DNA of 64,000 nucleotides, taken from contig OX597817.1 of assembly GCA_951406725.2 (NCBI GenBank), positions 96,286,001 through 96,350,000 on the forward strand, read 5' to 3'. Made by a program: the position numbers and the translations under genes. The notes below the pieces were generated by a model. That model made no database searches and was not told the origin of the DNA. It saw only the letters and a program-made list of their open reading frames with translations. Source of the DNA: Octopus vulgaris (lineage: Eukaryota). Positions 8,987-64,000 of the stretch are shown here, in pieces (the stretch's first letter is position 1; every line of letters starts with the position of its first letter).

Positions 8987-10248
8987 CGAGGGACGTTCAA
9001 TAAGTAATGCCCCTGAACCACTTGCAGTTGTTTGATCTAGCTGAAATTTTGCATATGCAATTATATATATCTCTATAGATTAAGTGGCAAATTACAGCTC
9101 TGAACTAATTGTGGTTTCTGATTTACAGGTGTTTGAACTGAGTCAAATGTGAAATGGAGCCTGTTGAGTGTCGAGCAGTGATCAGGTTTTTGTATTTGAA
9201 AGGATGCATACCACGGGAAACTTTTGATGAAGTAAAAGTAACTTATGGTGATGATGCCCCATCATATGACCTTGTAAAACGCTGGCATTGTGAATTCAAA
9301 CATGGTCGGAACTCTGTGGAAACGGCTCCCAGATCTGGTCGCCTCACCATCTGCCATTGATGAGGCATCTGTCCGTCAAGTTGAGGCTGCCATTTTGGAA
9401 GATCGACGCATAACTATTCGCCAAATAGCCCATGAGGTCAAGATTAGTACCGGGTCTGTGGAAGCTATCATTCATGACCATATGCATATGCCAGATGGAT
9501 TCCTAGGTTGCTCACAGAAGCAAGAACACGTCGAGTGCTCGAGGATGAATTTGGAGATGTGCCAAGAAGATGAGTCAAAATTTTTCAAAAGACTGATTAC
9601 ACAGGATGAAACCTGGGTCTATCACTATGATCCAGAGACCAAAGCCCAGTCAATGCACCGTGACTCACCTCCTCCAAAGAAGGCAAGGGTGCAGCCCTCT
9701 GCTGGCAAGGTCAAGCTCAGTCTTCTGGGACCAGGACGGAGTAGTGATGACAGATTTCCTGGCAAAGGGTACCACAATCGCAGGAGCCTATTATGCTTCA
9801 CTTTTGAGGAAATTAAGAGAAGCTATCAAAATCAAGAGGCGGGGCAAGATCAGCAAAGGCATCATCCTCCTGCAGGATAACGCTCCAGTCCACATCTCGC
9901 GTGTCGCCAGATCAGAAGCACAGTCGTGTGGCTATGAACTCCTCCCCCATCCCCCCTACTCTCCTGACCTTGCACCATCTGATTTTCACCTCTTCCCAGC
10001 CATGAAGTTGTTTTTGAAAGGAAAGCATTTCCCAGATGATGCAGCCTTGATTTCTGAAGACACATTGTGGTTGGAGGACCAAGCTGGGGTCTTCTACAAA
10101 AACGGTCTCCAGAGCTGCATCAAACAATGGGAGAAATGTGTAACTCTGGGTGGTTCCTATGTAGAAAAAGACTAATAACTGTGCCAAGTTTCGTTGCTCT
10201 ACTGCTATGGGAAGTGGGTCAGGGGCATTACTTATTGAACGCCCCTCG
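8987..10248 (+). mobile_element. Full-length mariner (DD34D), transposase frameshifted
   Basis: About 35-bp TIRs, TA on both sides; DETW, QDNAPVH and HPPYSPDLAPSD with 34 residues between the last two Asp; ORF broken over three frames (9154-10175). Confidence 0.95.
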
Positions 10249-11030: not shown

Positions 11031-11811
11031 CTGAAAAAAAAAGAGAATATAAAATTTTATAAATAAATGTTTATGTATACAGATATGTAAATATGCAAAT
11101 GTTTGTGTGTGTGTTTTCCTATGTCATGCCCTTATGAACTACTACTGAACTGTCAAGGGATTACTTCTGAAAGATTCTTCTAAAGTCATCACATCTCAAA
11201 ATGCCAAGAATTTCTTTTTAATTCCAGAAGAGATTGCAAAGAACTGCACTTACAAAAAAGTAATGAAAAAAACATACTAAATGAAATTACAAACACACAT
11301 ATACACACACACACACACAAACATATATATATATATTATATATACTAGCATTATGACCCGTCGTTGCCAGGTCATAGTGCTAGTGCATGTATATATGTGT
11401 ATATATATGTGTACATATTACATGTACATCTATATATATATATACATCTACACATAAAATACAAAATACAAAGTTATATCTTGATATCGCGAGTGATAAC
11501 AATACTCAAAATATATAACAGACTGGAATTGTAAGCCCGTCTCTTACAATTTCGATCGATTGTATCTTGTCCTCCCTCTTGTATCCAGCCTACCTCAACT
11601 TCTGGAGAGGGGGGGGGACATTTTTAATTTTTATCCGGCACGTCCTACGTCCCAGATATAAAGGTAAAAATAAAATATTTCCACTTTGCAAGTTCGAGTT
11701 GAGTACTCCCTTGCACGCTCCGTTGACTCGAACCTTGCTTCTATTGTGGCAAATTTACCCCTCTTTCATAGTCGCACCAAGACACTTTTCGATGGTGCTT
11801 TCCTCCAGGTG

Positions 11812-13577
11812 ATTTTATTACTACCCACAAGGGGCGAACATAGAGGGGACAATACAATCGGGGAACTTAAAATAAGAAAGCGAAATGACAAGAAGGGAAA
11901 AAATAAAAATAAAAATGACAAATGAAAGAATATTTACAATGAGATGCAAATGCCCACTCGATCCCCGGAATCGAGAGGTTACATTTTCGTCACATATAGT
12001 TCACAATTTTTTTCTCTTTTTTCTCTTCTTTCTTCTCTCTCCTCTCACAATCTCACACGTATTCCATAATACTTTTCAAGTCTCTAAAGTCAATCACTGA
12101 GCCCTCAGGCAGCCGCTCTTTCACTCGAACACCCGTGTAAAAAATTACACTCTCTCCAGCTGCTCTGAGGAACTCAGCGACTCTTTCTTCGGGGATCAGA
12201 GCAGTCTCCTGCCACTGATCAGTCATCCTGTTGACCCACACATGTCCCTCCATACTACATGTCAATTCCTTCATTTCGGGGCTGAAATGGAAGGTTATTA
12301 ACTTGTAGTAATCTTGTTTCCGTCCTACGTTTTCTCTCGTTTTTCTTTTCGGGCTTACTTCTTCCTTGTTCTCCTCTCTTTGTTTCTCTCTTTCTCTCTT
12401 TTTGCCTTCTTTTCTTTCTTCTTCCTTCTCTTGTCTTTTTGGTTCTTTGTCTGTTCTCTCTTTCTCTCGTGTTTTATGTTCCTTTTCTTTTTCTTTTTGT
12501 GTGCCGTCTTTTCTTTTCGTTTGGTTCTGTTCTCTCTCTTGTTTTTTTCCTGTTGTTTCTTTTTCCTTTTTCTTTTCCTGACTCTGTTTTGGTTCTATTT
12601 CTTTCTTTTCTTTTATTTCTTTTTCCTTCGTTGACTTATTATTTCCTTTCTCTTGTTGTTTTGTCTCCTTTTCTATGTTTTCTTTTTCATTTACCGTATT
12701 CTTCTTTTCTTCATTTTCCTTCTCATACTCCGCCATGAATTCATATAACGGGCACTCTTTTTTAATGTGCCCCCTTGTCCCGCACAAGTAGCAGTTTGGC
12801 TTTCTTCCCTCTACAATTACACTGAGGGTTTTCTCGTCTTCGATTTCTATTCTATAGGGGAACCTTTCAATGTCCTCTTTTGTGGCCATCAAACACAGTT
12901 CTACCCCATATCCTCTCCAATTTACTGCATTGGACTCCTTAAAGGATTCCACCTCCACTTCCTCTTCTGCTGCTCCTAGAATAGCTGTTGCCAGCCATTC
13001 TGTTTTTACTTCTGGGGGTATATTCGGGATTTTAACCCGGACCCCTCTTCTTCCCTTGTATGAGGGCCACATTATAAATGATTCCGCTCTTAGAACAGTG
13101 GTAGCCAGTGAGGCTGCAATTTCTTCCGTTGCACATCTCACCTCCACCGTACCAAATTTTTTCCTCTACTCACGTAGGTCGATTTATCCATTATGTCTCC
13201 CAGACATTTTTCGATCTCTGCTATCTCCACTCTTGCCAGTTTCTTTGTACTTTTGTCCTGGGTTCTATACGTTACAGTTTTGTTTTCCTTGTCCTCCTTT
13301 GCTTTCGCGGGGGGATTAGCTTCACGCTATCACCCTCCCTTTTGAATAGCTTTTCATATTCTTTGATTTTACTTTTCTCAAAGAAAACATCCTTCACGAT
13401 TATTGCCGAATCATTATTATTCTTTCCCGTGACCCCCGCGTAAGTCGCCATGACTAGTGGGTCAATTCACCTTCTTCTGAAGGTTTCCAAACGTGGAGGC
13501 AAACGCCTCGCGCGATATTAATCACTTTACACAACAAAATTTCACTGTCTAATCACAGATAACAACACGCAAATAGA
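11812..13577 (-). mobile_element. ORF1-only Tx1/L1-like non-LTR element, copy 1
   Basis: Short 5' UTR, one ORF (ATG 13451 to stop 12053), 240-nt 3' UTR ending in a tail shared with SINE family 2; no endonuclease or RT. Confidence 0.7.
12053..13451 (-). pseudogene. Gag-like ORF1p (RRM-like region, CCHC knuckle, K/E-rich tract); about 466 aa if two 1-nt homopolymer indels are corrected
   Basis: MATYAGVTG start; VRVKIPNIPPEV and VIVEGRKPNCYLCGTRGHIKKECP (CX2CX4HX4C) resemble Tx1-clade ORF1. Confidence 0.7.
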
Positions 13578-13590
13578 TTTCCTCCAGGTG

Positions 13591-15363
13591 ATTTTATTAC
13601 TACCCACAAGGGGCGAACATAGAGGGGACAATACAATCGGGGAACTTAAAATAAGAAAGCGAAATGACAAGAAGGGAAAAAATAAAAATAAAAATGACAA
13701 ATGAAAGAATATTTACAATGAGATGCAAATGCCCACTCGATCCCCGGAATCGAGAGGTTACATTTTCGTCACATATAGTTCACAATTTTTTTCTCTTTTT
13801 TCTCTTCTTTCTTCTCTCTCCTCTCACAATCTCACACGTATTCCATAATACTTTTCAAGTCTCTAAAGTCAATCACTGAGCCCTCAGGCAGCCGCTCTTT
13901 CACTCGAACACCCGTGTAAAAAATTACACTCTCTCCAGCTGCTCTGAGGAACTCAGCGACTCTTTCTTCGGGGATCAGAGCAGTCTCCTGCCACTGATCA
14001 GTCATCCTGTTGACCCACACATGTCCCTCCATACTACATGTCAATTCCTTCATTTCGGGGCTGAAATGGAAGGTTATTAACTTGTAGTAATCTTGTTTCC
14101 GTCCTACGTTTTCTCTCGTTTTTCTTTTCGGGCTTACTTCTTCCTTGTTCTCCTCTCTTTGTTTCTCTCTTTCTCTCTTTTTGCCTTCTTTTCTTTCTTC
14201 TTCCTTCTCTTGTCTTTTTGGTTCTTTGTCTGTTCTCTCTTTCTCTCGTGTTTTATGTTCCTTTTCTTTTTCTTTTGTGTGCCGTCTTTTCTTTTCGTTT
14301 GGTTCTGTTCTCTCTCTTGTTTTTTTCCTGTTGTTTCTTTTTCCTTTTTCTTTTCCTGACTCTGTTTTGGTTCTATTTCTTTCTTTTCTTTTATTTCTTT
14401 TTCCTTCGTTGACTTATTATTTCCTTTCTCTTGTTGTTTTGTCTCCTTTTCTATGTTTTCTTTTTCCTTTACCGTATTCTTCTTTTCTTCATTTTCCTTC
14501 TCATACTCCGCCATGAATTCATATAACGGGCACTCTTTTTTAATGTGCCCCCTTGTCCCGCACAAGTAGCAGTTTGGCTTTCTTCCCTCTACAATTACAC
14601 TGAGGGTTTTCTCGTCTTCGATTTCTATTCTATAGGGGAACCTTTCAATGTCCTCTTTTGTGGCCATCAAACACAGTTCTACCCCATATCCTCTCCAATT
14701 TACTGCATTGGACTCCTTAAAGGATTCCACCTCCACTTCCTCTTCTGCTGCTCCTAGAATAGCTGTTGCCAGCCATTCTGTTTTTACTTCTGGGGGTATA
14801 TTCGGGATTTTAACCCGGACCCCTCTTCTTCCCTTGTATGAGGGCCACATTATAAATGATTCCGCTCTTAGAACAGTGGTAGCCAGTGAGGCTGCAATTT
14901 CTTCCGTTGCACATCTCACCTCCACCGTACCAAATTTTTTTCCTCTACTCACGTAGGTCGATTTATCCATTATGTCTCCCAGACATTTTTCGATCTCTGC
15001 TATCTCCACTCTTGCCAGTTTCTTTGTACTTTTGTCCTGGGTTCTATACGTTACAGTTTTGTTTTCCTTGTCCTCCTTTGCTTTCGCGGGGGGATTAGTT
15101 TCACGCTATCACCCTCCCTTTTGAATAGCTTTTCATATTCTTTGATTTTACTTTTCTCAAAGAAAACATCCTTCACGATTATTGCCGAATCATTATTATT
15201 CTTTCCCGTGACCCCCGCGTAAGTCGCCATGACTAGAGGGTCAATTCACCTTCTTCTGAAGGTTTCCAAACGTGGAGGCAAACGCCTCGCGCGATATTAA
15301 TCACTTTACACAACAAAATTTCACTGTCTAATCACAGATAACAACACGCAAATAGATTTCGGA
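13591..15363 (-). mobile_element. ORF1-only Tx1/L1-like non-LTR element, copy 2 (tandem, 1779-bp period)
   Basis: Near identical to copy 1; I could see only three substitutions and two homopolymer indels. Confidence 0.7.
13832..15230 (-). pseudogene. Gag-like ORF1p, second copy
   Basis: Same protein; shifts at the G6 run (15088-15093) and a T run near 14275. Confidence 0.7.
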
Positions 15364-16060
15364 CAGGTGTTCAAATCTTCTTTTTTCTCTACATTGTATA
15401 CTTTATAGACAATAGTCTTTTCTTTAGTTTAATTTTTTATTATCCATCTGGACTATTCCATTTCTGCACACTAATTTTATTTTTAATTTATTCCCATTCA
15501 TGTGAAACCACTTATTCAAGTTCAAGTCATTGATGCAATTTTATACCAATTGCTATTTTTACTTTTGTTATGTTACGATTATATTATACTTTAGTTTGAT
15601 TTTAATTATTACTTACTACATATAATTCAATTGTTATTATTATTTTTATTGTTAAAGTGAAAGTATCTGACATAAAATAGAGAAATGTTTTTGTTTCACT
15701 TTTAACACGTAATACTGAAATAGTGGAGAAGATATGATATTGCTATGGGCTCGCTGTAGACAAGAAGTTGAACATTTTTTTGCCCACGAAACTACATGGA
15801 CCCTAAGTAAGGCATTTGTAAAATTTGAATGAAATTGGTTGTGTAGTTCTCAAGTTTTAGGGAATCGTAGTCGAGAAGATATGATATTGCTGTGGGCTCG
15901 CCCTAAGCAAAAAGTTTTAAAATTTTTTTTGCCGATGACACTCCCTGGACCCTAAGTAAGGCATGTGTAAAATTTGAATGAAATTTGTTGTGCAGTTCTC
16001 AAGTTTTAGGGAAACACACAGACAGACAGACAGACACATTCTCAGTTTTATATATATAGA

Positions 16061-16815
<755 letters not shown>

Positions 16816-19331
16816 TGATTGATTGATTGATTCTAGTTTCAGCTCATGAGCTGTGGCCATGCTGGGGCACCGCCATTTGGTGTTGCTACATGGTTTTACT
16901 TCACAAAAGCTTTTTAGCAACTGCCATTTGGTGCATGAGAGAGTTCGATGCAGCTGCCTTCATCTGCACCTCCTGCCGTGGAGTTGGTTCATCTGGGATA
17001 CCTGACAGGAAGAGATCCAGTTTCATTTTAAAGACATCTGCATCCACCCCATGCAGGTCTCTTAGGTTCTTCGGGAGGATATTGAAGAGCTGTGGGCCTC
17101 GGAAGCCCAGGCTATCACAGTATCTTGTCCTACATCTTGATGGCAAATTTGGAGTCCTTGGTATTACGCAGTGGCGTCCGGTTCTGGCATTTGTGTGACT
17201 CTCGATGCCAAAGTTTGGGACAAGTCCTTCCAGATATATATTATGGCATATCTTTCTCGCCTACGCTCCAGGGAATAGAGCTTTAATATCTTGAGTCTTT
17301 CCCAGTAGCTCATATGCTGCACAGAGGCTATCTTCTTCGTGTAGCTTCATTGGATCGCCTCGAGCTCTGTGATCAACTTGACACTGGATGGTGACCATAA
17401 CTGAGAGCAATAGTCAAAGTGGCTTAGGACAAGTGTCCTCCAGAGGACCATCATGGTTTCTTGTTCTCTTGTTCTAAAGGTTCTGAGAATCCAGCCAGCC
17501 AGCCGTCTACATTTTATTGCCAGTTTAGCAACATGTACATGAAAGGTCGCGTCATCACTCATGTGAATACCCAGGTCACGCACTGATTGTGCCTCTGGGA
17601 TTGCAATCCCTCCGGGTCCAGTGTATTCATTGGGTATTGCATTCAGTTTTGCATGCTGATAGTATAAAGCTTGAAACTTTTCAGCATTGAACTGCATGCT
17701 ATTCTTTTCAGCCCACTTGTATATTTCGTCCAGCTCACATTGCAGGTGCTTAGTGTCTTCAGGGTTCTGTATTGCCTGTGAAACTTTTGTATCATCTGCA
17801 TAACTTGTGATCGTGGCTCTCTGCGTGGCTGAGGGCATGTCTGAGAGGGCCATTATGAACAGTAGTGGTCCCAAAACAGTGCTCTGCGGAACACCGCTCG
17901 CTATTTGTGTGTTAATGGAAGTGGCCCCATTGGCTGCTACCACCTGACTTCTATTCTTCAGAAAGTCATGAAGCCATTCTCCCAATTTTCCAACTATACC
18001 AAGATCACGCAGTTTGTGACATATCATTCCATGATCGACTTTATCAAAGGCCTTTGCAAAGTCGAGATATATGACTTCCACATTTGAGTGGTTGAGCAGT
18101 TGTTTCAGCACCCAGTCATAGTGTTGTAGGAGCTGAGTTAAACAGCTTCTTCCTGGTCGGAAACCATGTTGGGTGTCAGGCAGCAAGTCATTTTCTTCAA
18201 GGAAGGTGATTAGTTTCCTTCTGACTATTGTTCCATGACCTTGCTGATGTGTGAGGTGAGAGAGATAGGTCTGTAGTTCTTGGCCTCTGCTCTGCTACCA
18301 CCTTTATGAATAGGACATATTTTACCTTCCTTCAGTTTTTTTGGAAGTTTGCCAGCTGCAAGGAAGCTCTGAAAGAGGATCTGCAGTGGTCTTGCTAGGA
18401 CTCTCTTACATACTTTTAGGAGGATTGCCGGGAATCCATCAGGGCCAATAGCTGATTCTGTTTTCATTTCATCTATGGCCTTTATTACATCGTCTTCCTT
18501 TATATCGATGTAATTTATCGTCGCCGCCTCTGATTTTATATCTGCAGTGGTAAAGAAGTCAGTTGGATTGGTGATTTGGAAATGCCCGAGGGATGGAGTG
18601 AAAACACTCTTGAATTGCTCATTCAGTATTTCACTTACCCTCATTGGTTTTCCTGTGAGTGTGCCATCCTTTTCAAGGAGTGGCCCTATCCTACAGTGCA
18701 CCGTAGCTGTTTCTTTGGCATACCTGTAGAAAGCTCTGGGGTTAGATTTTATGTTGTCTATAGCCCAGGCTTCTTTGTCTGCTCTTTCCTTTTCATGGGA
18801 GAGTTGCAGACATTTTCAATTTCCAACAGTTTTATTTTCAGGCGGGACTTTTCACTGCTTTCAATCTGTTTGTTTAGGCGATTTGAAATTTTTGTACGCC
18901 GTCTCATTAAAGATTTTCCTCTCTCTGGGGATTTTGTTCTTGTGTACAGTGGCCTTTCTCTCTGGGACACATTTGTAGCATATGGCTTGCGTTACAGACA
19001 TGAATTGTTGAAGTTTCACGTCGATGTCTGGCGAGGAGAGACATTTAGGCCAGTTTTGTTTGAGGATCTCTTTCTCAATTTGTTTCCAGTTTGCCTTATG
19101 GTAGTTCAAGCTGGAAAGATTCTGAGGGTTTCTTGTAGGCTGCATGTCCGTGCTCTCTTTTGGCCCATACATGGTCAGCTCTACCATGTTGTGATCCGAG
19201 AGTAGTGTCGGTGTCACTTTCACATTATGGATGAGATCCATATTATTTGTGAAGCAGAGATCCAGTGTGTTACTTGCCCTGGTTGGTTGGAGTATTACTT
19301 GCTCCATGTACAGGGTGTTGATGAGGTTCAT
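16816..19331 (-). mobile_element. CR1-clade LINE, 5'-truncated, disrupted ORF2
   Basis: Endonuclease end (TLDLCF, SDHNMV), RT motifs [21 protein letters not shown]; 3' stem and (AATC)n tail. Confidence 0.9.
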
Positions 19332-23711
<4,380 letters not shown>

Positions 23712-23753
23712 TAAGAGAGTGGTCACTATATTGATCATAGCACCAGTTAATCC

Positions 23754-23866
<113 letters not shown>

Positions 23867-23870
23867 CATA

Positions 23871-24245
<375 letters not shown>

Positions 24246-24247
24246 AT

Positions 24248-24301
<54 letters not shown>

Positions 24302-24330
24302 GTATTTTAAGCACAAAAATTCAACAAAAT

Positions 24331-24367
24331 CTGTTACTCTGAGTTTCTGTTGCCGTTCATCAGACAG
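24331..24367 (-). ncRNA. Minimal type I hammerhead ribozyme, inverted copy
   Basis: Reverse complement CUGU-CUGAUGA-ACGGCAACA-GAAA-CUCAGAG-UA-ACAG; one nt shorter in stem II. Confidence 0.65.
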
Positions 24368-24371
24368 TTAA

Positions 24372-24409
24372 CTGTCTGATGAACGGCAACGAGAAACTCA
24401 GAGTAACAG
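24372..24409 (+). ncRNA. Minimal type I hammerhead ribozyme (Penelope-type)
   Basis: CUGU-CUGAUGA-ACGGCAACGA-GAAA-CUCAGAG-UA-ACAG: stem I CUGU/ACAG, complete core, stem III CUC/GAG, GUA cleavage triplet; stem II weak. Confidence 0.75.
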
Positions 24410-24521
24410 ATTTTGTTGAATTTTCTGCTGCTTAAAATAAAGCATATTACTCTACCACTGGTATTTGAGTACTCTTTTTTCCACCTTGTTTCACATTTAT
24501 GTGTTTACTCCGGTCTATATA

Positions 24522-24572
<51 letters not shown>

Positions 24573-24689
24573 GTATATGTATATATATGTATATATATAT
24601 ATATATATATGTGTATATATGTATATGTGTATATATATATGTGTATATATATATATATGTATATGTATATATGTGTATATATATATGTG

Positions 24690-24756
<67 letters not shown>

Positions 24757-24921
24757 GTATATATGTATATATATGTATATATATATGTATGTATATATAT
24801 GTATATATATATATATGTATATATATGTATATATGTATATATATGTATATATATGTATATATATATGTATATATATATATATATGTATATATATATGTAT
24901 ATATATATATGTATATATATG

Positions 24922-25078
<157 letters not shown>

Positions 25079-25131
25079 GTGTATATATATATATGTGTAT
25101 ATATATATATGTGTATATATATATATATGTG

Positions 25132-25198
<67 letters not shown>

Positions 25199-25199
25199 G

Positions 25200-25434
<235 letters not shown>

Positions 25435-25441
25435 GTATATA

Positions 25442-25716
<275 letters not shown>

Positions 25717-25727
25717 GTATATATATG

Positions 25728-25760
<33 letters not shown>

Positions 25761-25767
25761 GTGTATA

Positions 25768-25837
<70 letters not shown>

Positions 25838-25928
25838 GTATGTATATATGTATATATATATGTATATATATATATGTATGTATATATATGTATATATATA
25901 TATGTATATATATATATGTATATATATG

Positions 25929-25977
<49 letters not shown>

Positions 25978-26040
25978 GTATGTATATATATGTATATATA
26001 TATATGTATATATATGTATATATATATATGTATATATGTG

Positions 26041-26085
<45 letters not shown>

Positions 26086-26086
26086 G

Positions 26087-26117
<31 letters not shown>

Positions 26118-26120
26118 GTG

Positions 26121-26177
<57 letters not shown>

Positions 26178-26178
26178 G

Positions 26179-26339
<161 letters not shown>

Positions 26340-26571
26340 GTATATATATATATGTATATATATATATATACACATATATATATATACACACACACACACA
26401 CATACATATATATATATACATACACACACATATATATATATACATATCTCTCTCTCTATATATATATATATAGATATATATATATATATACATATATATA
26501 TACATATACATATATAAATACATATATATATATACATATACATATATAAATACATATATATACATATATAT

Positions 26572-27200
26572 CATCATCATCATCGTTAAACGTCCATTTT
26601 CCATGCTAGCATGGGTTGGACATTTCAACTGGGGTCTGGGAAGCCAGAAGAATGCGCCAGGCCCAGTCTGATCTAGCAGTGTTTCTACAGCTTGATGCCC
26701 TTCCTAATGCCAACCACTCCGTGAGTGTAGTGGGTGCTTTTTGCGTGCCACCTGCACAGGTGTCAGATGAGGCTGGCAAATGGCCACGATCAGATGGTGC
26801 TGTTTACATACCACCGGCACAGGGGCCAGATGAGGCTGGCAATGGCCACAACCAGATGGTGCTTTTTACGTGCCACTGGCACAGAGGCCAGTCGGGGCAG
26901 CGCTGGCAACAGCCACGTTCGGATGGTTCTCTTACATGCCACCGGCACTGGTATCACAGCTACAATTTCCATTGATGTTGATCAATTTCGATTTTGATTT
27001 TCACTTGCCTCAACAGGTCTTCACAAGTAGGGTTTGTGTCACAAGAAGGAAAGGCATGCATAAGTGGGCTGGCTACGTCCCCGGTAGAGACCACGGGTTA
27101 TGGTCTCACTTGTCCTGCCGGGTCTTCCCAAACACAGCATACTTCCAAAGGTCTTGGTCTCTGGTCATTTCCTCGGTGAGACCTAAATTTCGAAGGTCAT
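26572..27200 (-). mobile_element. RTE 3' fragment (ORF end and 3' UTR)
   Basis: HDLRNLGLTEEMTRDQDLWKYAV ORF end; (cat)n tail. Confidence 0.88.
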
Positions 27201-30018
27201 GACATTCCTGAGAGACCTTGCGGCATGCAATCCAGCTATATGCATGGCACTCATAGAAACGCATCTTGGACCCAATATAGGGGATGCAGAAATACACATA
27301 CCGCAATATGCTGTCACACGCTCAGATAGAAAAGGGAGGAGCTATGGTGGAGTTGCAATGTACATCCGAGATGACCTCATGCCCCAGGTCCTATTGTCAT
27401 ATTCAAACTCAGTGTGTGACACTCAAACTGAATATCGTCATATATAACTACATATCGCCCACCAGATGCCCCAAATCACACAGGCATGTTTGAAGACTGC
27501 CTAACAAAAATAGGAGAAGTTCTCACCAACCTGGAACAACACAACATGGGTGACTTTAACTTCCTCAATGTGGAATGGCCTGGGGAGCAGAATGCTCCCA
27601 GGGATGACACACCATCAGAAGGCACAGGCAGAGTCCCTGCTCCATCTCACAAACGCCACTTTCATGGAGCAAATAGTGCTGCAACCAACAAGGGAAGATA
27701 ATATACTGCATCTCTGCCTCACAAACAATATGGATATTATCCATAATGTTAAAGTGATGCCGAAAATGATCTCGGATCACAACATAACAGAGCCGTCTAT
27801 GTATGGACCAAAAGCCTCTGCAGACACACAGCCTATACGAAACATCCACAAGCTCTCCAAATTAAACTTTCATAAAGCAAATTGGAAGTTGATTGAGAAA
27901 GAGATCCTCAAACAGGATTGGCCTAAATGTCTCTCCACACCGGATATTGACATGAAACACAAACACTTCATGTCCATAATACAAGCCATATGTGACAAAT
28001 ATATCCCAGTGTGCAGGGCCAACACACACAAAAACAAAAACAGGATCCCTAGAAAAAGGAAGATTCTTATGAGACGACGGACAAGGATTGCGAACCGCCT
28101 GAGCAAGCACACCAAAAGTGGTGAGAAGTCTCGGCTCAAGAGAATGCTAATGGAAATTGAGAAAAGTCTGCATCAGTCTCATGAAAAGGAGAGAGCAGAT
28201 AAAGAAGCTTGGGTAATAGAAAATATAAAGTCAAATCCTAAAGCTTTCTTTAAGTTTGCCAAAGAGACAGCCACAGCGCACCAGAGAATAGGACCTCTCT
28301 TCCAAAAAGATGGCTCCCTCACAGGAAATCCCACGGGGATAAGTGAAATACTGAACGAACAATTCCAAAGTGTATTCACTACACCTCTAGGACACAGGCA
28401 AGTAAACAATCCAGAAGAATTCTTTGCCTCTTTACCTGTGGCCAAAGAGGCAAAAATTGAGTACATCAACATTGAAGATGATGATATCACACTGGCCATA
28501 GATGAGATTGACACAAACTCAGCTGCTGGACCTGATGGATTTCCAGCGATCCTTCTCAAATCGTGCAAACAAGCCCTTGCAAAACCGCTACAGCTTCTTT
28601 TTCAGAGCTTTCTTGCAAGTGGTAAGCTCCCAGTCAAATTGAAAGAGGGGGTAATATGCCCTGTCCATAAGGGAGAAAGCAGAGCAGATGCTAAAAATTA
28701 TAGGCCTATCTCTCTGACCTCACACATCAGCAAAGTCATGGAATGAATAGTCCGCAAGAAACTAATCATGTTCCTTGAAGAAAATGACTTGCTGACTGAC
28801 ACCCAGCATGGATTTCGACCAGGTAGAAGCCGCCTAACACAGCTCCTGCAACATTATGACTGGGTGTTAAAACAGCTACTAAATGGCTCAAATGTGGATG
28901 TGATATATCTCGACTTTGCAAAAGCCTTTGATAAAGTCGACCATGGTATGATTTGTCACAAACTGCGTGGTCTCGGAACAGGCCTAAAACTTGGAGAGTG
29001 GCTGCACAACTTCCTAAAAGATAGAAAGCAAGCAGTTGTGACCAATGGAGCCACCTCCAAGGAAACACAAATAACAAGCGGTGTTCCACAGGGCACTGTC
29101 TTGGGGACACTGCTGTTCAGAGTGGCCCTTTCAGACATGCCTTCAGTTACTAAGATGGTCACACTTGATAGCTATGCAGATGACACAAAAGTCTCCCACA
29201 CAATACAAAACCCTGGAAATATTGCACATCTGCAACAAGAGTTGGATACAATATACAGGTGGGCTGAGGACAACAACATGCAGTTTAATGCAGGTAAGTT
29301 CCAGGCCCTGCGCTACCAGCACACAAAGGTAAACGACATGCAGACTCGATACAGTGGCCCAGGAAGAATTGCAATCCCTGAGTCAAAATCAGTGCGTGAC
29401 CTGGGCATTGACATAAGCAATGATGCCTCTTTCCAAGTGCATATTACTAATTTGGTGATAAAATGCAGACGGCTAGCTGGATGGATTCTCCGAACTTTCA
29501 GAACAAGAGAGAAGGAGACACTGATGGTCCTGTGGAAAACTTTCGTCCTCAGCCACTTGGACTACTGCTCCCAACTATGGTCACCACACAATATAAAACT
29601 AACAGCAGAACTCGAAGCAATTCATTGAAGCTACACAAAGAAGATCGTCTCAATGCAACATATCAGCTACTGGGAAAGACTGAAAGTATTAAAACTCTTC
29701 TCCCTAGAGTGAAGGCGGGAGAGATATGCGGTCATATACATCTGGAAAATCCTGGAGGGTCTTGTCCCAAACTTTGGCATTCAAAGTTACCCCAACCGCA
29801 GAACGGGGCGCTACTGCATGGTGCCAAAAATTCCAACATCACCATCAAAATACAGGACCAGATACTGCAACAGCTTGGGTTTCAGAGGACCACAGCTCTT
29901 TAACATCCTCCTTAAATGCCTGAGAGACTTGCATGGTGTGGATGTAGGTTTCTTTAAAACTAAACTGGATCTCTTCTTGTCGAGGGTCCCAGATGAACCT
30001 ACCTCACAATAGGAGCAA
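27201..30018 (+). mobile_element. CR1-clade LINE ORF2 (APE endonuclease + RT), disrupted, 3' tail missing
   Basis: [34 protein letters not shown] and YADDTK across ORFs 27199-30012. Confidence 0.9.
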
Positions 30019-30719: not shown

Positions 30720-30894
30720 CATCATCATCATCATCATCATCATTTAGCGTCCGCTTTCCATGCTAGCATGGGTTGGACGGGTCAACTGGGGTCTGGGGAG
30801 CCCGAAGGCTGCACCAGGCCAGTCAGATCTGGCAGTGTTTCTACAGCTGGATGCCCTTCCTAACGCCAACCACTCCGAGAGTGTAGTGGGTGAT

Positions 30895-32690
30895 TTTATG
30901 TGCCACCGACACAGGTGCCAGACGAGGCTGGCGAACGGCCACGCTCGGATGGTGTTTTTATGTGCCACCGACACAGGGTCCAGACGAGGCTGACGAACGG
31001 CCACGATCGGATGGTGTTTCTTACGTGCCCACAGCACGGAGGCCAGTCGATGCGGTACTGGCTACGGCCACGTTCGGATGGTTTTCTTGTGTGCCACCGG
31101 CACTGGTACCACAAAGATACAAATTCCATTGATGTTCATCTATTTTGATTTGATTTGATTTGATTTGATTTGATCACTTGTCTCAACAGGTCTTCACAAG
31201 TGTCACAAGAAGGAAGGTATGCACAGGTGGACTGACTACATTCCAAGTAGAGGCCACGGGTTATGGCCTGACTAGTCTTGCTGGGTCTTCGGATGGTGCT
31301 TTTATGTGCCACCAACACAGGTGCCAGATGAGGCTGGCGAACGGCCACGATCGGATGGTGTTTGTTATGAGCCCACAGCACAGAGGCCAGTCGATGCGGT
31401 ACTGGCTACGGCCATGTTCGGATGGTTATCTTGTGTGCCACCGGCCCTGGTACCACAAAGATACAAATTCCATTGATGTTCATCTATTTTGATTTGTTTT
31501 GATTTGATCACTTGCCTCAACAGGTCTTCACAAGTGTCACAAGAAGGAAGGTATGCACAGGCGGACTGACTACGTCCCAGGAAGGGGCCACGGGTTATGG
31601 CCTGACTAGTCTTGCCGGGTCTTCAGATGGTGTTTTTATGTGCCACCGACACAGGTGCCTGATGAGGCTGGCGAACGGACATGATCGGATGGTGTTTGTT
31701 ACGTGCCCACAGCACGGAGGCCAGTCGATGCGGTACTGGCTACGGCCACGTTCGGATTGTTTTCTTGTGTGCCACCGGCACTGGTACCATAAAGATACAA
31801 ATTCCATTGATGTTCATCTATTTTATTTTGATTTTCACTTTCACTTGCCTCAAAAGGTCTTCACAAGTGTCACAAGAAGGAAGGTATGCACAGGTGGACT
31901 GACTACGTCCCAGGTTGGGGCCACGGATTATGGCCTGACTAGTCTTGCCGGGTCTTCGGATGGTGTTTTTATGTGCCACCGACACAGGTGCCTAGTCTTG
32001 CCGGGTCTTCGGATGGTGTTTTTATGTGCCACCGACACAGGTGCCAGATGAGGCTGGCGAACGGCCAGGATCGGATGGTGTTTGTTACGTGCCCACAGCA
32101 CGGAGGTCAGTCGATGCAGTACTGGCTACGGCCACGTTCGGATGGTTTTCTTGTGTGCCACCGGCACTGGTACCACAAAGATACAAATTCCATTGATATT
32201 CATCTATTTCGATTTGTTTTGATTTTTTTTTTTTTTTTTGATTTTCACTTGCCTCAACAGGTCTTCACAAGTGTCACAAGAAGGGAGGTATGCACAGGTG
32301 AACTGACTACGTCCCAGGTAGGGGCCACAGGTTATGGCCTGACTAGTCTTGCCGGGTCTTCGGATGGTGTCTTTATGTGCCACCGACACAGGTGCCAGAT
32401 GAGGCTGGCGAACGGCCACGATCGGATGGTGTTTGCTATGTGCCCACAGCACGGAGGCCAGTCGATGCAGTACTGGCTACGGCCACGTTCGGATGGTTTT
32501 CTTGTGTGCCACCGGCACTGGTAACAAAGATACAAATTCCATTGATGATCATCTATTTTATTTTGATTTTCACTTTCACTTGCCTCAACAGGTCTTCACA
32601 AGTGTCACAAGAAGGAAGGTATGCACAGGTGGACTGACTACGTCCCAGGTAGGGGCCACGGGTTATGGCCTGACTACTCTTGCCGGGTCT
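30895..32690. repeat. Five tandem units of about 333 bp in the RTE 3' UTR, built from subrepeats of about 60 bp
   Basis: cacttgcctcaacaggtcttcacaag recurs near 31175, 31509, 31842, 32246 and 32577. Confidence 0.9.
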
Positions 32691-38690: not shown

Positions 38691-39183
38691 CATCATCATC
38701 ATCGTTTAGCGTCCGTTTTCCATGCTAGCATGGGTTGGACGGTTCTACTGGGGTCTGTGAAGCCAGAAGGCTTCATCAGGCCCAGTCAAATCTGGCAGTG
38801 TTTCTACGGTTGGATGCCCTTCCTAACGCCAACCACTTCGAGAGTGTAGTGGGTGCTTTTTACGTGCCACCCGCACAGGTGCCAGACAGAGCTGGCAAAC
38901 GGCCACGAACGGATGGTGCTTTTTATGTGCCACCGGCACGAGGGCCAGGCGGGGCTGGCAACGGACACGAAACGGGGCGGTGCTGGCAACGGTCGCGAAA
39001 CGGAAGGTTCTCTTACATGCCACCGGCACTGGTAACACATCTGCAATTTCCATTGATCGATTTCCATTGATCGATTTCAATTCTGATCCTCACTTGCCTC
39101 AACGGGTCTTCACAAATGGAGTTTCGACATGCCACCGGCACTGGTAACACATCTGCAATTTCCATTGATCGATTTCGATTCTG
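38691..39183 (-). mobile_element. RTE 3' terminal fragment with local duplications
   Basis: Near identical to 55-320; acatgccaccggcactggtaacacatctgc is duplicated. Confidence 0.85.
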
Positions 39184-62544: not shown

Positions 62545-64000
62545 TTTTTTATTTTATCTAGTTTCAGCTCATGAGCTGTGGCCATGCTGGGGTACCGCCA
62601 TTTGGTGTTGTTACATGATTTTACTTCACGAATGCTTTTTAGCAATTGCCATTTGGTGCATGAGAGAGTTCGATGCAGCTACCCTCATCTGCACCTCCTG
62701 CCATGAAGTTGGTTCATCTGGGACACCTGACAGGAAGAGATCCAGTTTCATTTTAAAGACATCGGCATTCACCCCATGCAAGTCTCTCAGGTTCTTCGGG
62801 AGGATATTGAAGAGCTGTGGGCCTCTGAAGCCCAGGCTATCACAGTATCTTGTCCTACATCTTGATGGCAAATTTGGAGTCCTCGGCACTATGCAGTGGC
62901 GCCCAGTTCTAGCATTTGTGTAACTCTCGATGCCAAAGTTTAGGACAAGTCCTTCTAGGATCTTCCAGATGTATATTATGGCATATCTTTCTCGCCTACG
63001 CTCCAGGGAATAGAGTCTTAATCTCTTGAGTCTTTCCCAGTAGCTTATATGCTGCACAGAGGCTATCTTCTTCATGTAGCTTCGTTGGATCGCCTCAAGT
63101 TCTGTGATTAACTTGACACTGGATGGTGACCATAGCTGAGAGCAATAGTCAAAGTGGCTTAGGACAAGTGTCCTCCAGAGGACCATCATGGTTTCCTGGT
63201 CTCTTGTTCTAAAGGTTCTAAGAATCCATCCGGTCAGCCGCCTACATTTCATTGCCAATTTAGCAACATGCACATGAAAGGTTGCATCATCACTCATGTA
63301 AATACCCAGGTCAAGTACTAATTGTGCCTCTGGGATTGCAATCCCTCCAGGTCCAGTGTATTTATTGGGTATTGCATTTAGTTTTGCATGCTGATAGCAT
63401 AAAGCTTGAAACTTTTCAGCATTGAACTGCATGAAATTCTTTTCAGCCCACTTGGATATTTTGTCCAGCTCACATTGCAGGTGCTTAGTGTCTTCAGGGT
63501 TCTGTATTGCCTGTGAAACTTTTGTATCATCTGCATAACTTGTGATTGTGGCTCTCGGCGTGGCTGAGGGCATGTCTGAGAGGGCCATTATGAACAGTAG
63601 TGGTCCCAAAACAGTGCCTTGTGGAACACCGCTCACTATTTGCGTGTTAATAGAAGTGGCCCCATTGGCTACTACCACCTGGCTTCTATCCTTCAGAAAG
63701 TCATCAAGCCATTCTCCCAATTTTCCAACTATGCCAAGATCACGCAGTTTGTGACATATCATTCCATGATCGACTTTATCAAAGGCCTTTGCAAAGTCGA
63801 GATATATGACTTCCACATTTGAGTGGTTGAGCAGTCATTTCAGCACCCAGTCATAGTGTTGTAGAAGCTGAGTTAGGCAGCTTCTTCCTGGTCGGAAACC
63901 ATGTTGGGTGTCAGGCAGCAAGTCATTTTCTTCAAGGAAGGTGATTAGTTTCCTTCCGACTATTCGTTCCATGACCTTGCTGATGTGTGAGGTGAGAGAG
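62545..64000 (-). mobile_element. CR1-clade LINE (same subfamily as 16816-19331), continues beyond the window
   Basis: 396-aa RT ORF 62626-63816; same 3' stem ggtaccccagcatggccacagctcatgagctgaaactag. Confidence 0.92.

Follow-up and report, generated by a model that had tools for sequence, protein, structure and literature searches.

The window analysed here, 64,000 nucleotides of the Octopus vulgaris genome (assembly GCA_951406725.2, contig OX597817.1, positions 96,286,001 to 96,350,000), carries on its minus strand two head-to-tail units of a compact retroelement, termed A1, with a period of 1779 bp and differences at 8 of 1793 aligned columns. The family to which A1 belongs, A, is very probably a non-autonomous group of long interspersed nuclear elements (LINEs) that has only the first open reading frame (ORF1) and occupies a fixed site in a Helitron-like repeat together with a full-length LINE, B, equipped with an apurinic endonuclease-like (APE) domain and a reverse transcriptase (RT). 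A is likely to make its own RNA-binding protein and to be inserted by the endonuclease and RT of this partner. Each A1 unit consists of a leader of ~126–130 nt, a single ORF (start codons at 15230 in the upstream and 13451 in the downstream copy) and a 3' untranslated region (UTR) of 242 nt, in good agreement with the original prediction for this stretch, which had described an ORF1-only retroelement with a 1779-bp period, a leader of ~130 nt and a 3' UTR of ~240 nt. That prediction was also right in finding no endonuclease or RT, as a Pfam search detected neither an APE nor an RT domain in the A1 unit and full-length copies elsewhere in the genome have the same compact size.

A DNA search of the O. 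vulgaris genome with the unit gave 46 scored matches of 90–100% identity, and a single A1 tail pattern had 102 exact genome matches. From the fetched stretches 104 full-length A1 copies (~1.77 kb) were aligned; 8 of 20 small stretches held B tails or short pieces and no full A copy, and were excluded from the 104. The ORF1-to-tail junction of A1 was seen at many loci, and 5'-truncated A1 copies are present as well. Three other origins were rejected: a one-off deletion of a LINE, given the 104 copies of the full-length unit; a spliced host gene, given an unspliced ORF that is found in more than 100 copies and matches the ORF1 of the neighbouring LINE; and an assembly artefact, given a single 1811-nt short-read contig that covers the whole unit. 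The original prediction, which took the unit for neither of the first two, is supported. Predicted octopus proteins matching the A1 ORF1 are pieces of these elements.

ORF1 protein, selection and related lineages

In unbroken copies the 466-amino-acid (aa) ORF1 is laid out as two predicted RNA recognition motifs (RRMs), a CCHC knuckle, a K/E-rich tract and an 86-aa lineage-specific C-terminal domain. The sole Pfam match of the A1 ORF was zf-CCHC, and Transposase_22, the domain of type II ORF1 proteins (ORF1p), gave no match at E values up to 1. Folding from the single sequence was poor (predicted local distance difference test, pLDDT, 44) and was replaced by an alignment-based model of residues 1–244 (125 sequences; pLDDT 92). 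The best Foldseek matches of this model were tandem-RRM proteins (E 4e-5), and against single RRMs it reached a Z-score of 9.1 and a root-mean-square deviation of 2.6 with 82 positions aligned. The RRM-like region and knuckle proposed originally are consistent with this predicted tandem-RRM fold and with the zf-CCHC match. The C-terminal 86 aa had no Atlas match, and among the proteins compared only those of the A lineage matched them. By species label, 10 of 10 ORF1 protein matches were from Octopus vulgaris, with relatives in O. sinensis, O. bimaculoides and Argonauta. The RNA-binding domains of ZCCHC3 are a feature-level look-alike of the ORF1 core (scores 0.89 and 0.86), which serves as a lead only; ZCCHC3 is a host gene, whereas the ORF1 of A is found in more than 100 mobile copies.

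Both window copies contain two single-base frameshifts, each inside a homopolymer run. The 466-aa ORF that the original prediction had reconstructed exists in a natural unbroken version at another locus (L015), and 6 of the 104 full-length A1 copies have an open frame of 465–469 aa. For the window copy at 13590–15356, short-read contigs carry an extra base at both broken places in 4 of 4 runs examined, with depths at the C run of 31/31, 62/112, 3010/4911 and 144/144. Sequencing runs presumed, though not recorded, to be RNA cover the A1 unit, a coverage that does not count as support for its transcription. Because the short-read contigs of four runs carry this base, most frameshifts, including those in the window, are likely to be homopolymer errors of the assembly.

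The ORF1 of A1 is under purifying selection. Nine copy pairs had ratios of nonsynonymous to synonymous substitution rates (dN/dS) of 0.09–0.14 in the core and 0.16–0.22 over the whole ORF. The corresponding polymorphism ratio (pN/pS) was 0.15 for variants common to at least three loci versus 0.50 for private ones (Fisher p 1e-6), and the stop codons among A1 copies were private in 8 of 8 cases. A1 and its relatives A2a, A2b, A3 and A4 are all short and form one clade (support 100/99). The cores of these four relatives are 68–86% identical to that of A1 (dS 0.9–1.6, with A4 saturated; dN/dS 0.08–0.12), and among the A subfamilies overall dS was 0.9–2.2 or saturated, with dN/dS of 0.05–0.15 where computable. 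An ORF2 continuing from an A-type ORF1 was found at 0 of 20 sister-lineage loci. Judged by sequence divergence, the A1 copies are young but the ORF2-less life of the lineage is old, because the related short subfamilies are deeply diverged and have no joined ORF2. Of the "young non-autonomous half-Tx1 family" proposed at the outset, the multi-copy ORF1-only nature and the youth of the copies were therefore retained, and the youth of the lineage was not (subfamily dS 0.9–1.6).

The tail of A3 differs from that of A1 and resembles the tail of another autonomous family. A second ORF1-only lineage, C (1.65–1.72 kb), forms its own clade and uses the same host and site; its ORF1 is 33% identical to that of A and 38% to that of B. 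Loci with C1 or C2 elements are L111–L114, L143 and L145, and lineage C usually stands 5' of A in arrays.

Partner element, target site and host repeat

The 5.2-kb element B lies downstream of A at most loci, ends at the same junction and codes for an ORF1 and for an ORF2 of 1131 aa, in which Exo_endo_phos, RVT_1 and zf-RVT domains are found. On the DNA level, A and B have 58 nt at the 3' end in common (including 9 nt of target; 90% identical) and little else, and the tail motif is retained in the A, B and C families. A stem-loop in the tail was unsupported, with four predicted pairs and zero compensatory changes. The ORF1 cores of A and B are only 34% identical (206 aa, E 4e-45), and A is therefore not a fresh deletion of B. 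The ORF2 of B scored 339 bits against a protein named YTX2 and 225 bits against human L1 ORF2p. B is likely a Tx1-type LINE because of its RRM-CCHC ORF1 and its target preference, and an APE-RT ORF2 whose zinc domain is C-terminal agrees with this. The B-type tail was joined to the host at 76 exact junctions, part of them belonging to A2a. The shared tail and target suggest that A would be mobilised in trans by the ORF2 protein (ORF2p) of B. A short repeat resembling a short interspersed nuclear element (SINE), present genome-wide (e.g., L203:1500-1700), ends in nearly the same tail, GCCCCTTGTGGGTAGTAAAGAAAT, which has 40,542 exact matches. This repeat may be mobilised by B or a relative; Rfam searches around it returned microsatellite-driven matches only.

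The window array interrupts the Helitron-like repeat, whose halves form its flanks in place of unique DNA; this host had been overlooked by the original prediction. Flanks are alike between loci and represent the halves of a ~1-kb repeat that starts with TC and ends with a hairpin and CTAG. Host sequence stood at the array end in 42 of 50 A1 loci (hand count), and for some of the eight loci without visible host the fetched stretch stopped inside the array. CTAG was followed by T at 21 of 21 matched 3' ends and ATC was found at 33 of 40 5' ends; the subterminal 3' hairpin was seen by eye in the sequence. The host repeat is recognisable as a non-autonomous Helitron-like element inserted between A and T. 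Its middle derives from an ORF1 of the same LINE group, of which a decayed fragment is left (window 11480-11798 and ~15369-15430; L049-L060), and the ORF1 profile matched empty host copies in 12 of 12 cases at E < 0.01 (best 3e-13, compared with 0.34 for the best reversed control). The main target site (site 1) falls within this fragment, and its empty, joined form had 298 exact genome matches (control 0). At four of the 42 host-located A1 loci the host is a shorter variant without ~270 bp including site 1, and the elements occupy a second site, AAC|AATTCCAGTC; exact empty second sites numbered 109. AAC|A is present at the inferred nick in both target sites. The shorter variant occurs at L093, L094, L097, L101, L103, L110, L205 and L206, and a further recurrent landing sequence, CAACTGAATACTC, lies within a repeat (L146:2650-4480, L103, L109).

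At the junctions the motif AC[A/C]TGGAGGAAA (minus strand) is found, the duplicated target being ~12 bp or slightly longer. The flanking CAGGTG, read originally as a target-site duplication (TSD), thus belongs to a real duplication, but the duplicated target has ~12 bp or more and its outer copy is a variant. Locus-specific junction variants flank later copies on both sides (e.g., ACATGGCTCCAAG for an A1 stacked on B), and the variant ATCTGGAGGAAA occurs three times at one locus. The outermost target copy is often a variant, and the same variant with the same element head recurs on other contigs, which suggests that a donor RNA also contains the target copy upstream of its element. Left and right target copies agree in their first 4 nt at 10 of the 18 loci scored. 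Among seven places tested at which copies lie outside the host, five had TSDs of 12–19 bp, one showed a longer repeat with a 5' extension and one no clear TSD; independent TSDs in other DNA belong only to older or stray A1 copies. Together with 5' truncation and the tail in common with B, the duplications show that A1 units were retrotransposed. The shared junction with independent TSDs, as first envisaged, accordingly holds for the junction, which recurs at many loci, whereas most insertions are at one fixed Helitron-like site.

In the proposed mechanism, A RNA would be packed by its own ORF1p, and the ORF2p of B would recognise the shared tail and be recruited to the A RNA, nick the target at AAC|A and prime reverse transcription there. 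Each insertion would duplicate ~12 bp and leave a usable target at the 5' junction; later copies would therefore add 5', and arrays would grow as an ordered stack.

Arrays, insertion order and rival explanations

In the commonest arrangement an array reads C, A, B between the 5' and the 3' half of the host. Adjacent pairs comprised A then B in 40 cases, B then A in 4 and C then A in 12. In a rooted tree the 5' neighbour was younger in 23 pairs, older in 4 and tied in 34 (p 3e-4, with pairs not independent). Exact junctions were found between the A1 tail and host (9), host and A1 head (22), and host and full-length B head (10). Only ~10 of 43 A1 arrays (hand count) begin on an empty site, despite 298 of ~383 exact-match sites being empty; A1 therefore seems to favour already occupied sites, a lead to be read with the unequal stringency of the patterns and the possibly younger age of some empty hosts in mind. 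One array has 22 A1 units followed by B over ~45 kb (G000:C7:100.087-100.132 Mb; L115, L131-L134, L116), and local amplification probably contributed to some long runs. The loci L164 and L168, which lie on different contigs (C15 and C10), carry the same composite of C1, A1, an internally deleted B and B, and whole blocks are therefore sometimes copied.

Several observations count against an ORF1-only family that is mobilised by B and stacked by repeated insertion. The first 4 nt of the target copies differ at 8 of the 18 loci, two of these eight being false pattern matches. The frameshifted six-C run is present in 70 of the 104 assembly copies and the in-frame seven-C run in only 23, and the case for assembly errors is built on contigs from four runs. 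A sister locus (L190) has an ORF2 piece ~600 nt behind the ORF1 core with no tail found between them, an autonomous A-type element could be missed as only the best 150 + 93 protein matches were scored, and the real source of ORF2p could be another autonomous family present at these sites. At the array level polarity was 10 versus 3 among 17 (p 0.09), adjacent pairs being non-independent, and in two arrays, the 22-unit one and that of C22, stretches of neighbouring units are identical, which indicates local duplication or conversion.

Among the rival explanations, the one that survives best, though it is unlikely, holds that ORF1 is kept for the partner or the host and not only for the RNA of A itself, either as a helper directing the complex towards occupied sites or as a dominant-negative brake on B. 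A is found on occupied sites far above their share, and the available part of Kojima 2018 (PMC5786205) suggests that such proteins multimerise with those of the partner and enhance transposition; a cis benefit, however, fully explains the selection on variants common to several loci. Slightly less credible is an origin of the arrays from single events, in which the partner RT copies its own RNA and jumps onto A RNAs, or from unequal crossing-over, in place of repeated insertion. The position of B, 3' of A in 40 adjacent pairs against 4 with B on the 5' side, is what a jump after cis priming predicts, and identical units stand next to each other in the arrays of C7 and C22, in agreement with such events. 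Against them stand subfamilies up to 9% apart that are mixed in age order, A alone between host halves (the nine exact junctions) and the target copy present between units. It is very improbable that A arose recently by internal deletion from an autonomous element that had the same ORF1, and that its low dN/dS was inherited from this parent. Such a parent could have escaped because only the best candidates were scored in the searches and the assembly may be incomplete, but A1, A2a, A2b, A3 and A4 are all short members of one clade (100/99) at dS of 0.9–2.2 or saturated, selection is visible among the A1 copies themselves, and joined ORF2 was seen at 0 of 20 sister-lineage loci. The least probable account, by which the unit is passive cargo of the Helitron-like host and one ancestral insertion spread by rolling-circle transposition, would fit the many copies at the same host position and the one composite with the same internal B deletion at the C15 and C10 loci, but hosts are 1.4–6.5% apart where inserts differ by <0.5%, outside-host copies have their own TSDs, 5'-truncated copies are present and array content varies between loci. 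Divergence of host and insert is uncorrelated at the 27 loci compared (rho -0.04), and the inserts were therefore not carried by the Helitron.

An ORF1-only family that shares tail and target with B is thus the preferred reading, and it may be part of a larger system of layered parasites, a possibility advanced tentatively. A Helitron would have caught part of a LINE ORF1, and a Tx1-type LINE would then have taken this part as its landing site. Sites filled by the LINE would in turn be sought out by two long-lived lineages with ORF1 only, which would add themselves 5'. Dozens of interstitial stacks comparable to those of HeT-A and TART would then record the order of activity, the ORF1p of the parasites might find the occupied sites, and the short repeat with more than 40,000 copies might use the same tail.

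Related systems and other features of the window

The following comparisons draw on the available parts of the papers cited. ORF1-only LINE derivatives are described there from the Jockey, L1 and CR1 clades only, as HeT-A, HAL1 and Ag-Sponge (Kojima 2018; PMC5786205). HAL1 is non-autonomous, has ORF1p only and arose more than once (PMC5753468), and among the telomeric families of Drosophila, ORF1-only ones make up about 40% (PMC13534243). Type I (RRM-CCHC) ORF1p of non-mammalian animals is tied to Tx1 (PMC5203782), and Tx1 families target piggyBac, Mariner, Harbinger and long terminal repeat (LTR) elements, with SINEU-3 in tandem around the TSD (Kojima 2015; PMC4494074). In O. vulgaris 13 recently active L1-Tx1 families have been counted, none of which is described in the part available (PMC13282606).

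A resembles HAL1 in being non-autonomous with ORF1p only, but HAL1 stems from mammalian L1 and its ORF1p has a coiled coil, an RRM and a C-terminal domain, whereas A has the type I form and, unlike HAL1, inserts at a fixed target site and has a defined tail that its partner shares. HAL1 is not known to be site-specific. HeT-A and the other Drosophila telomeric elements are likewise ORF1-only and stand in head-to-tail arrays with autonomous partners; HeT-A differs by its Jockey clade affiliation, its location at chromosome ends and its service to the host, and the arrays of A, unlike those of HeT-A, are interstitial, inside a transposon, and have target duplications between units. Ag-Sponge of Anopheles is, like A, an ORF1-only LINE derivative, and belongs to the CR1 clade. 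Tx1 of Xenopus, Tx1-Mar, Tx1-9_AMi and SINEU-3 of crocodilians also involve Tx1-clade LINEs that hit DNA transposons (piggyBac Tx1D, Mariner-N4, Harbinger) and a dependent that shares the target and stands in tandem around the TSD. In the crocodilian system the dependent is a SINE without coding capacity, and the accessible description mentions no Helitron as target; the octopus dependents, unlike SINEU-3, code for a conserved protein, comprise two lineages and have their target in a decayed ORF1 fragment of a Helitron-like repeat.

No published ORF1-only Tx1 element or Helitron-targeting LINE was found in the literature, with most subscription journals and Repbase Reports outside its scope. 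Nor was the combination of two ORF1-only lineages, mixed arrays with a set order and a target in the relic of a captured ORF1 found in print, as far as the available parts of the sources go (Repbase, Dfam and the octopus repeat library of PMC13282606 were not compared); each ingredient has precedent. ORF1-only LINE parasites are known from three clades. A young ORF1-only family, its full-length partner and an exact 12-bp target in one genome lend themselves to simple reporters for cis preference, tail recognition and target choice, and ordered arrays give each locus its own chronology of transposable element activity. Targeted insertion is a further field in which a site-specific APE LINE with so short a recognition tail is of interest; a major octopus SINE may also have this LINE as its partner.

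Table 1. Features of the A1 array and its Helitron-like host in the window (window coordinates).
Feature	Position	Strand	Supporting observation
Host 5' half, non-autonomous Helitron-like repeat; starts TC; internal 149-bp duplication	15369..16062	-	Same sequence at other arrays and in empty copies
Outer target-site duplication, variant ACCTGTCCGAAA	15357..15368	-	Same or 1-base-off variant heads young copies on 3 other contigs
A1 upstream copy, 1767 bp	13590..15356	-	
ORF1 of upstream copy, two homopolymer frameshifts in the assembly	13832..15230	-	
3' tail common to A1 and B	13590..13638	-	58-nt match at 90% identity, 9 nt of it target
Target-site duplication between A1 copies, ACCTGGAGGAAA	13578..13589	-	
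A1 downstream copy, 1767 bp	11811..13577	-	
ORF1 of downstream copy, two homopolymer frameshifts in the assembly	12053..13451	-	
Target site, host-side copy ACCTGGAGGAAA	11799..11810	-	Identical to the empty-host site
Host 3' half: decayed captured ORF1 fragment; terminal hairpin 11355-11373, CTAG then T	11345..11798	-	

Other repeats were observed elsewhere in the window. A fragment of a Mariner-type transposase (Transposase_1) lies at 9278-10175, and RT-bearing LINE fragments (RVT_1) are found at 17228-18294, 28710-30015 and 62695-64000, with a mutual identity of 77% and inverted orientation. A 233-bp unit is repeated in 4.1 copies at 99% identity at 22143-23103, beside a 3.4-kb (TA)n tract (23106-26571), and a GC-rich repeat family with 62-bp and 334-bp tandem arrays occurs at 26733-26948, 30889-32045 and 38852-39003.

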